Positions 1 to 6,289 of a stretch of DNA of 11,380 nucleotides are shown piece by piece; position 1 is the first letter of the stretch, and each line of letters begins with the position of its first letter. This DNA is from Escherichia coli (GTDB lineage: Bacteria > Pseudomonadota > Gammaproteobacteria > Enterobacterales > Enterobacteriaceae). The notes beneath the pieces were generated by a model. That model was given only the letters and a program-made list of their open reading frames with translations, was not told the origin of the DNA and ran no database searches. Position numbers and translations under genes: made by a program. The DNA lies in the NCBI RefSeq assembly GCF_003334255.1, contig NZ_QOWU01000083.1; one strand, given 5' to 3'.

Positions 1-62
1 AATCGGTGGAGCTGCATGACAAAGTCATCGGGCATTATCTGAACATAAAACACTATCAATAA

Positions 63-575
63 GTTGGAGTCATTACCAAACAGGGATTATTTATTCTCTC
101 AGGCGAGAATAAAATAGACGAAGAATGTTTCATTAATATAGTCCAAACGGCTGTCGCCATAAATAACATCGGTAGAGAATCTAATGGTTATATTTTAGTT
201 GGTGTTTCCGATACCAAAGCTACGGCAGACAGAGTTAAGACTTTATATGGTGTTACCCCTATTGAGTGCAATGGCTATTATATCAATGGAATTGATCATG
301 AAGCTGTAATTCAATCAAAAAACATAGATAATTACTTTCTGTTCATAAAACAAAAAATAGAATCATTTAATTTTAATGAGGCTTTGAAACAACAAATACT
401 AAAAGATATTTCATTATGTTCATATGAAGGACTGCATGTTTTAAAAATCGAAATAAAAAGTGTCGGAGAAGTCTGTCATTTTGAAAATAGGTATTATATA
501 AGACAAGGAACAGCTACGCATTTAATCACTGACGGTGAAGCAATTAGTAGTTTACACAGATTATATTACTCATAA
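63..575 (+). CDS. Start-less ORF with Schlafen/AlbA_2-like domain signature (possible truncated or disrupted gene)
   Basis: Frame is open from 63 to the TAA at 573-575 (171 codons) in AT-rich DNA, where long open frames are unlikely by chance. Translation contains ...CFINIVQTAVAINNIGRESNGYILVGVSD... and ...GLHVLKIEIKSVGEVCHFENRYYIRQGTATHLI..., which resemble the AlbA_2/Schlafen-type motifs (CAFANtxGGxLxIGVxD; ...YIRxGxxT) from memory. No ATG/GTG in frame; first canonical start is TTG at 384; in-frame TAA at 60-62 and all three frames closed within the first 62 nt. Confidence 0.35.
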   Translation, partial: VGVITKQGLFILSGENKIDEECFINIVQTAVAINNIGRESNGYILVGVSDTKATADRVKTLYGVTPIECNGYYINGIDHEAVIQSKNIDNYFLFIKQKIESFNFNEALKQQILKDISLCSYEGLHVLKIEIKSVGEVCHFENRYYIRQGTATHLITDGEAISSLHRLYYS

Positions 576-2276: not shown

Positions 2277-2630
2277 TTAATTTATTAGCTTCATCGCATT
2301 TTTTTTGGTCTCTTCATCACTTTTTTGCTCTTGTTGTGAAGAGGATTGAGTGACTATTGAAGAATTAAAATCGGCCATCTCTTTTGGAAATAGCGATCTC
2401 AATATATTCACGATATCTGAAAATGTGGTTTCTTTCGTCAGCAGCTCACATAAAAGGAAAGGGGTCCGGGGATCTTGTCTGTATAAGGCCAGACCTGCCG
2501 TCAGTGCGGCCCGGTTAAGGCGGCTTCGTTCCCCTTGCGGGATACTGTCCAGTGTATCACAAACAATTTTATCTGTTTGATTTACATCTGGATTTAGTTT
2601 GAAGGCAATGGTTCTGCGCTTGTCCATCAT
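2277..2630 (-). CDS. parR: ParR (StbB) centromere-binding adaptor protein of type II (actin-like) partition system
   Basis: 117-aa translation [54 protein letters not shown]... matches my recollection of plasmid R1 ParR. Lies immediately downstream of parM with a TAATG stop/start overlap, the known parMR operon arrangement. Confidence 0.9.
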   Translation of the reverse strand: MMDKRRTIAFKLNPDVNQTDKIVCDTLDSIPQGERSRLNRAALTAGLALYRQDPRTPFLLCELLTKETTFSDIVNILRSLFPKEMADFNSSIVTQSSSQQEQKSDEETKKNAMKLIN

Positions 2631-3592
2631 TAATTACCTATGAGATACATACCGTTAACTAAATCATATTGAGAGTTATTGGTTTTGAAAAAACGTTCAT
2701 CACGAATCTGTGTGTGTTTTTTTACTGCATCGCATATTAATTCTGCGCCACCGCCTATAACCATAACATGAGTATAACCAGAAAATTCATTGAGCGTATT
2801 TAATACACGTTGCTCAAGTTTACGAAGTGCTTCATTCATTGCTTCGGTGACTATTGATATTTTGTTCTCATCATTAATTCGTTGCTTCAGATAGTTATTA
2901 TCTTTTCTGTGAATGATTATATCGTCAGCAAGATAGCTACTTCCTTTTGTTCTCGCAAGAGAAAGGGCATCTTTTACTGCAGATGTAACCAGAGAGACAC
3001 CAAGAGATGAGTCTCCGTATATTTTACTGATCCCCGATAATTTCCCCATTACCTGAGAAATATCTAATGTGGTGCCCCCGAGATCTATAATTAATAAAGA
3101 ATCTAACTCATCCAGTTCTTGTAGAACTTCATAACCTGCCGGTATAGATTCAGGCATGACTTTTACATCTTTTATTGTGAATGTATCCCCGCCATTTAAT
3201 GTAATTTTTTTCCGGAAGTTTGCTTTCTTACGCTCAATATTTTCCGTATTGGGTTGGTTATTTCTGTCGTAATACTCTGTCAGAGGAAGTGTGCAAACAA
3301 TATCCACTTCGCTTACCGGCAGACCACTGGTCAGTAAGGCGTGATGCACTGCAACGACATTAACGTCGCTGTATTGCCATGCGATATTGGTTGTGACTAC
3401 AGCATCCGGGCTGATTGGATCAAATGAATACTGTTCGCCGTTCAGTGTGTAGTTAAAGACCTTTTTATCACCAAAAGAGACTGCCCACTCGCGTTTGAAG
3501 CTGTTCGGGCTAATGTGCTGTTTAATTGTTCCGTCGCTTTCCTGCCACTGTAGTTTGATGTTTGTTGAACCGTCATCAATGAATACCAACAT
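2630..3592 (-). CDS. parM: ParM (StbA) actin-like plasmid segregation ATPase
   Basis: 320-aa translation [22 protein letters not shown]...[14 protein letters not shown]...[11 protein letters not shown]... carries actin-fold phosphate-binding motifs (DDGSTN, DLGGTT, GGGA) and matches R1 ParM as I recall it. RBS AAGGAG lies upstream of the ATG at 3590-3592. Confidence 0.95.
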
Positions 3593-4108: not shown

Positions 4109-4792
4109 ATGTCCCGTTTTATCCTGGGTGACTGCGTGCGTGTTATGGCCACGTTTCCGGGCAATGCTGTCGATTTCATCCTCACCGACCCGCCGTATCT
4201 CGTCGGTTTCCGTGACCGTTCCGGGCGCACCATCGCCGGCGATAAAACCGATGAATGGCTGCAACCAGCCTGTAATGAAATGTACCGCGTACTCAAAAAA
4301 GACGCGTTAATGGTGAGCTTCTATGGCTGGAACCGCGTCGATCGCTTTATGGCCGCCTGGAAAAATGCGGGATTCAGCGTTGTTGGTCACCTGGTCTTCA
4401 CCAAAAACTACACATCGAAGGCCGCATATGTGGGCTATCGCCACGAATGTGCCTACATCCTGGCAAAAGGCCGTCCACGTCTGCCACAAAACCCGCTGCC
4501 GGACGTGCTGGGCTGGAAATATTCGGGCAATCGCCATCACCCGACGGAAAAGCCCGTTACCAGCCTGCAACCGCTGATTGAGAGCTTCACACACCCGAAC
4601 GCAATTGTGCTGGACCCGTTTGCAGGCAGCGGCTCAACCTGCGTCGCCGCCCTCCAGTCCGGACGCCGGTATATCGGTATCGAGCTGCTTGAGCAGTATC
4701 ACCGTGCCGGGCAGCAACGCCTTGCCGCCGTGCAACGGGCCATGCAGCAGGGGGCCGCGAATGATGACTGGTTTATGCCGGAGGCTGCGTAA
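4109..4792 (+). CDS. Orphan DNA methyltransferase, N6-adenine/N4-cytosine beta class (PF01555-like)
   Basis: 227 aa. Motif IV DPPY near the N-terminus (LTDPPYLVG) and motif I near the C-terminus (VLDPFAGSGSTCVAA), the order typical of beta-class amino-methyltransferases. Good RBS AAGGAG before the ATG. No adjacent restriction endonuclease candidate. Confidence 0.85.
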   Translation: MSRFILGDCVRVMATFPGNAVDFILTDPPYLVGFRDRSGRTIAGDKTDEWLQPACNEMYRVLKKDALMVSFYGWNRVDRFMAAWKNAGFSVVGHLVFTKNYTSKAAYVGYRHECAYILAKGRPRLPQNPLPDVLGWKYSGNRHHPTEKPVTSLQPLIESFTHPNAIVLDPFAGSGSTCVAALQSGRRYIGIELLEQYHRAGQQRLAAVQRAMQQGAANDDWFMPEAA

Positions 4793-5014
4793 ATGAACTA
4801 TGCAGGACACGAAAAACTGCGCGCCGAAGTGGCGGAGGTGGCCAATGCCATGTGCGACCTGCGTACAACCATGAATGAGATGGAGCAGCGGTACAGCTTT
4901 AATGCCGACACCCTGCCGGAACGTCTGGTGCGTCAGACGCTGTTTCGCGCAAACCGCCTCCTGATGGAGGCATATACCGAAATTCTGGAACTGGAAGCGT
5001 GCTTTAAAGATTGA
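4793..5014 (+). CDS. Hypothetical protein (73 aa), translationally coupled to the methyltransferase
   Basis: ATG immediately follows the methyltransferase TAA (TAAATG); GGAGG lies about 10 nt upstream; GC-rich codon usage consistent with neighbours. No recognisable family. Confidence 0.55.
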   Translation: MNYAGHEKLRAEVAEVANAMCDLRTTMNEMEQRYSFNADTLPERLVRQTLFRANRLLMEAYTEILELEACFKD

Positions 5015-5027
5015 GAAGGAGACGAGA

Positions 5028-5462
5028 ATGTACGGAACATGCGAAACGCTATGCCGGGAGCTGGCAGTAAAGTATCCGGGAGACATGCCGCTGATGCTGG
5101 TTATCTGGTCCCCGGAAGAGATTCAGGCACTGGCTGACGGTATGGAAATTTCTCTGACCGGTCATGAAATCAGGACCGTCCTGGCACGCCTGGAGGACAT
5201 CCCGGAAGACCAGCGGATTGAGTCCGGTATTTCTTCCGCTGCGGTGATGGAGATTATCCGCAACGAGAGCGAAAACCGCCTGGTGACCGTCCCTGCTGAA
5301 CTGCTGGCGTCCCTGATTCAGACCGCTGAACAGGCATTGTGGAAACGTGAATGGGCCGCCCGGGATCATGGCCTCGCCGTCCCGGAATGCGTCACCCGCC
5401 GTCAGGAGGTGGTTAATCAGGCCCGCACCCTGCTGAAAAACAACACACACGAAAACGACTGA
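5028..5462 (+). CDS. Conserved plasmid protein of unknown function (144 aa; possibly DUF1380-like), paralog of 7179-7601
   Basis: RBS GAAGGAGACGAGAATG. Aligns by eye with the 7179-7601 product (MY.T...RE...SLT..E..TV..RL.D...RxVTVPA..L). The DUF name is recalled, not verified. Confidence 0.6.
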
Positions 5463-6289
5463 TGTTATCGCCGCCTGCCCTGCGGGCGGCGATACAGGGA
5501 GAACGCTTAATCATGAACGAAAACAGCACGCTGAACGCACTGATTTGTCGTCACGCCCGCAACCTGCTGCTGGCGCAGGGCTGGCCGGAAGAGACGGATG
5601 TTGACCAGCGTAACCCGAAGTATCCGGGCTGGATCAGCATTTATGTTCTGCTGGATGCGCCCCGGCTGGCGACGTTACTTATCAACCGTCACGGCGGCGT
5701 ACTGCCGCCGCTCCTGGCCTCCGCCATTCAGAAACTGACCGGAACCGGGGCGGAACTGGTACTGTCCGGCAGTCAGTGGCAGTCGCTGCCGGTACTTCCG
5801 GCAGACGGAACGCAGGTGTCTTTCCCGTATGCCGGAGAATGGCTGACCGAAGACGAAATCAGGGCTGTACTTGCGGCGGTGCGCGATGCGGTACGCAGTG
5901 TCAGTTGCCGGGTGGCAGAAGATGCGCGGCGTATCCGGGCGGCGCTGACCACCACCGGTCAGACGTTGCTGACTCGCCAGACGCGCCGCTTTCGTCTGGT
6001 TGTGAAGGAAAGCGATCACCCCTGCTGGCTCGATGAAGATGACGAAAACCTGCCCGTGGTGCTCGATGCCATCGTGAACCGGGGAGCACGTTTTTCGTCG
6101 GTGGAAATGTACCTGGTCAGCGATTGTATTGAGCATATCCTGTCCAGTGGGCTGGCCTGCGATGTGCTGCGTATACCGGATGAACCGCCCCGCCGCTGGT
6201 TTGACCGTGGTGTTCTGCGGGAGGTGGTCCGGGAAGCCCGGGCCGAAATCCGCAGCATGGCGGATGCCCTGGCAAAAATCCGGAAATGA
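5462..6289 (+). CDS. Hypothetical protein (275 aa; alternative start ATG 5513 giving 258 aa)
   Basis: ATG 5462 overlaps the upstream stop (TGATG). An internal ATG at 5513 has its own RBS (AGGGAGA). Long GC-rich ORF co-oriented with neighbours. No recognisable motif. Confidence 0.6.

Follow-up and report, generated by a model that had tools for sequence, protein, structure and literature searches.

The open reading frame at positions 63 to 575 of the 11,380-nucleotide stretch of Escherichia coli DNA examined here (assembly GCF_003334255.1, contig NZ_QOWU01000083.1; the whole stretch is hereafter called the window) is, in all likelihood, a pseudogene fragment: the last quarter of a defence gene, produced by transposition of the insertion sequence IS1 and left behind as a dead remnant. 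Alignment to an intact gene, Pfam matches, a catalytic motif and the predicted fold together identify positions 78 to 575, on the plus strand, as the 3' remnant of a DUF262(GmrSD_N)-ParBDB-AlbA_2/Schlafen gene, comprising codons 426 to 590 and the stop codon. An earlier note on this DNA had read the region as a Schlafen/AlbA_2-like frame of uncertain origin, possibly a decayed defence gene. The domain family and the decay are borne out by our analysis; the causes which that note proposed for the missing start codon are not.

The open frame and its intact parent gene

The features of the frame that had attracted attention, namely its AT-richness, the lack of ATG and GTG and the TAA at 60 to 62, were all reproduced. 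The frame runs for 170 sense codons without a stop and ends with the TAA at 573 to 575; the sole canonical alternative start within it is a TTG at 384. The remnant has a G+C content of 30.9%, compared with 52% for the whole window, and at the composition of the remnant 170 stop-free codons have a probability of about 3e-7. Shuffling the sequence 5000 times gave longest open runs of 47 codons on average and 137 at most, and 9 to 20 stops occur in each of the remaining five reading frames of the region. The frame is far beyond chance for its composition.

A complete version of the gene, 1773 bp and 590 codons long (protein WP_001262766.1), is carried without interruption by plasmid pUMNK88_K88 (NC_017639.1 32944-34716). 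The gene belongs to the IncFII backbone, between pemIK and the parMR/stbAB operon. The comparison with intact homologs that had been proposed for the open frame showed it to be collinear with the 3' end of this gene: window positions 78 to 575 align to bases 1276 to 1773 with 99.4% nucleotide identity and a single amino-acid difference, A480T. A profile hidden Markov model search of the translation, likewise suggested, returned SLFN_AlbA_2 (PF04326; E 2.3e-5, 25 bits, model positions 18-115 of 118). The modest strength of this match, and the absence of any PADLOC or NCBIfam match to the remnant alone, are what could be said for a frame left open by chance in AT-rich non-coding DNA, with a spurious resemblance to AlbA_2. 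That reading is refuted by the shuffle test, the identity to an intact gene, the fold evidence and the existence of a length-conserved family of homologs, and we give it practically no credence.

The intact protein reveals what the remnant was part of. Pfam places GmrSD_N/DUF262 (PF03235) at residues 26 to 165 (E 2e-19) and a full AlbA_2 domain at residues 420 to 573 (model positions 2-115), and the C-terminal region has the Schlafen/AlbA_2 fold. The PADLOC profiles NsnA (9e-22, residues 10-341) and PD-T4-2_A (1e-18) match the N-terminal two-thirds; the region matched by NsnA corresponds to a ParB-DUF262 sensor domain followed by a ParBDB DNA-binding domain, a pair common to GmrSD, SspE and DndB (PMC12065111). 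The QRxxxW and DGxQR motifs are present as YQRKLVW and LDGMQR. A sequence search of the PDB with the intact protein gave no match and a fold comparison was needed, in which Foldseek ranked BrxU first; NCBIfam returned only a noise match to CobQ. The catalytic Ex4(D/E)xK motif reads E419-QPNY-D424-F-K426. E419 and K426 are present in every one of 36 diverse homologs compared, with an aspartate at position 424 in 35 of them and a glutamate in one.

Insertion of IS1 and the missing start codon

The first 77 bases of the window are the right end of IS1 (plus strand, by sequence identity): the last 62 bases of the transposase reading frame and the terminal inverted repeat ...GGAGTCATTACC. All 77 are identical to the ends of IS1 elements annotated with IS1A/IS1B transposase, and this sequence occurs in 4942 of 5426 complete E. 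coli genomes. The TAA at 60 to 62 (plus strand), which had been taken for an in-frame stop preceding the gene, is by coding sequence annotation the stop codon of the IS1 transposase in the InsB frame; the annotated transposase ends at window base 62, which is position 6032 in the locus of plasmid 39R861-3. Translation across the end of IS1 gives ...HYLNIKHYQ*, followed in the same frame by VGVITKQG... Codons 63 to 77 (VGVIT) belong to the terminal inverted repeat, the last 15 bases of IS1, and share the frame by coincidence. Base 78 is the first of the native gene, 63 to 77 lying outside it, and the start codon is absent because everything to the left of base 78 is IS1.

The nine bases at 78 to 86 (plus strand) are the right-hand copy of the target-site duplication AAACAGGGA, as judged from the matched copies in R100 and 39R861-3. 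At the uninterrupted site in pUMNK88_K88, which reads ...TATGATTTT AAACAGGGA TTATTT..., the motif AAACAGGGA is present once. In 39R861-3 a single IS1 of 768 bp lies within the gene with AAACAGGGA on each side, and in R100 AAACAGGGA abuts the outer ends of both IS1a and IS1b, the junction at IS1b being that of the window. Terminal inverted repeat, internal identity, a 768-bp element and a 9-bp direct duplication are all those of IS1. IS1 has inserted here in its classical manner, duplicating 9 bp of target.

Two other explanations of the missing start, a frameshift or point mutation that removed it from an otherwise complete gene and the use of an unusual start codon, have nothing in their favour beyond the lack of ATG and GTG. 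What precedes base 78 is IS1 and not gene, and the missing 1275 bp are intact elsewhere on the same plasmids with the matching target duplication beside them. The frameshift "just upstream" and the non-canonical start evoked in the earlier note are thereby refuted. We regard the probability of decay in place as negligible.

Some plasmids show layered activity of insertion sequences at this one junction. An example is CP023934.1 (2845-3000), where the junction IS1 has itself been cut by IS26/IS15DI and only about 90 bp of it still precede base 78.

The resistance-determinant junction of R1 and R100

The entire window is 100% identical to plasmid R1 (NZ_KY749247.1 41355-52734). Inspection of the upstream sequence for the N-terminal part, another check that had been proposed, located it at the opposite end of the IS1-bounded resistance determinant in R1 and R100. 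The R1 copy of this 5' part occupies 4149-5459, next to pemIK, and continues into an IS1; a resistance determinant of about 36 kb separates it from a second IS1 and the remnant. In R100 the 5' part is at 92230-93540, and the gene's initial 1284 bp stand upstream of IS1a without a mismatch; the 3' 498 bp of the gene correspond to the window copy and adjoin the second IS1 (IS1b). The IS1-bounded resistance determinant of R100/NR1 is Tn2670. The window is identical in sequence to the junction between IS1b and the resistance transfer factor (RTF) backbone in R100/NR1 and R1; R100 has the same junction and the same duplication, with no structural difference.

The course of events is simple. IS1 inserted between codons 425 and 426 of a gene of the IncFII backbone, duplicating AAACAGGGA, and in R1/R100 two IS1 copies bracket the whole resistance determinant, so that the 5' 1284 bp are left beside pemIK and the 3' 498 bp stand beside the second IS1. 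As to the order, either a lone IS1 arrived first and was then expanded or an IS1-bounded composite was inserted; the sequence fits both equally.

An IS1-truncated fragment is ordinary, and the junction has already been documented: the IS1/backbone boundary already serves to mark the lineage of resistance regions derived from Tn2670 (PMC8765060). Passages of two papers on this junction, searched by keyword, do not say which gene the insertion destroyed. In the library that was searched, no paper pairs DUF262 with AlbA_2, and the 12 papers ranked highest for DUF262 together with IncF, IncFII, R100 or pemK never mention DUF262. That a Schlafen-type defence gene houses the resistance determinant of R1 and R100 may be unstated in print, yet existing annotations lead directly to it. 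As a candidate start-less defence gene the frame is a clean negative, being a textbook IS1 insertion at the boundary between resistance determinant and transfer backbone of R1 and R100. What it does indicate is that a Schlafen-type defence gene was part of the ancestral IncFII backbone, until the first multiresistance determinant destroyed it, precisely at the catalytic motif.

Relation to known defence systems

Prokaryotic Schlafen nucleases have been shown to act as phage-defence effectors; their catalytic motif is Ex4(E/D)xK, and the E15A/D20A mutant of RorSlfn5 is inactive (Perez Taboada et al., bioRxiv 2025 PMC12330615; Nat Microbiol 2026 PMC13056530). In the same work, fusions of the DUF262-Slfn type account for 1.8% of the family and include EcoSlfn7, found in E. 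coli UC4224, which reduces the plating of T7 about 540-fold and acts over a broad phage range. The parent protein resembles the EcoSlfn7-type fusions in architecture, with an N-terminal DUF262, a C-terminal Slfn/AlbA_2 domain and the Ex4(D/E)xK motif, and like the tested prokaryotic Schlafen genes it is encoded by a single gene on mobile elements. By analogy with these systems, the intact protein is best read as a single-chain defence enzyme whose DUF262/ParBDB module would sense foreign nucleic acid and license a Schlafen-type nuclease. Phage defence by nuclease action of the plasmid protein would follow from homology and from its analogy to EcoSlfn7. Unlike the DUF262-Slfn fusions, the window copy consists of the last 165 codons only and its motif is split: in the remnant at 78 to 575 the DUF262 domain is missing (codons 1-425 are absent) and no complete Ex4(E/D)xK is found.

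The type IV enzymes GmrSD, BrxU and SspE share with the parent an N-terminal DUF262 ParB-like nucleoside triphosphatase domain followed by a helical DNA-binding domain, and the combination of sensor and nuclease in a single chain. The parent differs from them in its C-terminal effector, which is AlbA_2/Schlafen; the DUF1524 His-Me finger nuclease was not found by Pfam in the intact protein, and identity with a GmrSD type IV enzyme was rejected on this ground. The RefSeq name "GmrSD restriction endonuclease domain-containing protein" covers the N-terminal domain only. NsnA of the Menshen system and protein A of PD-T4-2 gave the best PADLOC matches, through the DUF262 and ParBDB region. In contrast to Menshen, the parent protein carries its own C-terminal effector domain, and identity with Menshen (NsnABC) was also rejected, as neither NsnB, NsnC nor another conserved partner stands beside the gene in the contexts examined.

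The parent architecture recurs in a family of proteins of conserved length, about 590 amino acids, with members in Enterobacterales, Vibrio, Aeromonas, Burkholderia, Chromobacterium, Sphingopyxis, Planctomycetes and a Eubacterium. The gene stands alone in every context examined. On the plasmid it has pemK on one side and unrelated DNA with IS21 on the other; in Chromobacterium and Aeromonas its neighbours are unrelated genes; and in P2-like prophages of Enterobacter and E. coli a lone homolog with about 68% amino-acid identity lies on the opposite strand between gpV (baseplate) and gpS (tail). This gpV/gpS gap looks like a moron-like cargo slot. As a defence hotspot it does not appear in Rousset et al., and a 2026 preprint on P2/P4 hotspots names neither Schlafen nor DUF262. 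Strain UC4224 is absent from the 28 E. coli genomes that carry the P2-prophage variant. In NZ_CP031134.1 (4867880-4870432), and also in NZ_CP195467.1, the chromosomal P2-prophage homolog is split by IS1 at about codon 166, which is an independent IS1 strike on this AT-rich gene family.

State of the remnant

IS1 sits between F425 and K426, that is, inside the catalytic motif E419-x4-D424-x-K426. The remnant keeps K426 only and lacks E419, D424, the first 425 codons, a promoter of its own and a canonical start; the domain's first beta-strand, modelled at residues 423-426, is mostly gone too. E419 and D424 are the counterparts of the two residues whose mutation inactivates RorSlfn5. No promoter-like site was found upstream of the remnant within the window, the sole sigma-70-like site being internal, at 115 to 142. 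The remnant is almost certainly non-functional, and is probably not expressed. Its near-perfect conservation stems from recent common descent of the plasmids, not from selection.

Several facts weigh against so complete a loss, and they are also those that would favour a functional stand-alone AlbA_2 protein, started at the ATT at position 72 or by reinitiation after the insB stop and acting as a nucleic-acid binder or a dominant-negative decoy. The frame is still open over 170 codons, no frameshift or nonsense mutation having accumulated in the window's remnant. It follows the transposase stop directly (0 nt downstream), in frame and in the orientation of IS1 transcription, and read-through from IS1 with rare reinitiation may yield trace translation. 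Some pipelines annotate from ATT 72 a 167-amino acid "RNA-binding domain-containing protein" (a coding sequence in CP023934.1), which falls into a 118-sequence cluster. On the other side, ATT 72 is inside the IS1 inverted repeat, with a GGAG that ends only 2 nt before it; a sigma-70-like promoter is wanting upstream within the window; and the product would be devoid of E419, D424 and most of the first beta-strand. Moreover, the open frame exists only through an insertion event, and clonal spread of one junction accounts for its high conservation. We consider a working stand-alone protein highly unlikely, and retain the dead remnant as by far the better reading.

A further scenario, which we hold to be very unlikely, is that the knock-out itself benefited the R1/R100 lineage, for instance by removing a self-toxic or plasmid-restricting nuclease, or that one of the fragments took on a new role. 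Such a fragment would be the 436-amino acid DUF262 stub or a nuclease-dead AlbA_2 stub made after the insB stop, which might act as a decoy or dominant-negative against Schlafen-type defence in recipients. An advantageous knock-out could help explain the ratio of about 6:1 between broken and intact genes among plasmid records, and a fragment with a new role would be sitting beside the anti-defence genes of the leading region.

Protein databases contain several artefacts of this split. WP_001262765.1, a 436-amino acid "DUF262" protein, has final residues (...KQGGDAANLLI*) that are read from IS1, and the remnant has given rise to entries of 147 to 167 amino acids labelled "AlbA family" or "RNA-binding domain-containing", one with an ATT start in the IS1 inverted repeat. 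Records from this locus, of 436 as well as of 147 to 167 amino acids, should be treated as pieces of a pseudogene.

Distribution

The exact 80-bp junction between IS1 and the remnant was found in 876 plasmid records (455 from Klebsiella, 307 from Escherichia, 74 from Shigella, 24 from Salmonella, and others). A single event plus recombinational spread is the origin that PMC8765060 proposes for plasmids with this junction. The 5' part of the gene is present in 555 plasmid records and the contiguous gene in about 141. Among the 5426 complete E. coli genomes, 803 contain some piece of the gene and 105 have at least 80% of it in one place, a count that takes in copies split only by a single IS1. 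Most descendants are thus without the gene (876 junction records vs about 141 intact), one more example of plasmids trading defence genes for cargo.

Surroundings of the remnant

Just downstream of the remnant, a consensus scan detected a strong terminator-like hairpin on the plus strand at 584 to 626, made of a 13-pair stem (584-616) followed by a T-run and starting 9 nt after the stop codon; terminator-like sites numbered two against 0.5 expected. Its sequence and position make it the probable native terminator. The next 1.7 kb or so (576-2276) separate the remnant from parR and contain one annotated gene, for a hypothetical protein of 93 amino acids (1873-2154). By annotation, parR/parM occupy 2277-3592 on the minus strand and are followed by leading-region genes coding for a DNA methylase, two DUF1380 proteins, an anti-restriction protein, a DUF3560 protein and a SAM (S-adenosylmethionine)-dependent methyltransferase, with ssb and psiB just past the end of the window. 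The juxtaposition of a defence gene and an anti-defence island, to which the earlier note had drawn attention, is real, though loose, and the defence gene in question is not intact.

A search of Rfam over the window returned no match, and repeats near the remnant are limited to chance-level pairs. Immediately downstream of the parR (stbB) stop, on the minus strand, the sequence contains a perfect 19-nt inverted repeat with a 9-nt spacer (2220-2266), which is probably the terminator of the parMR operon.
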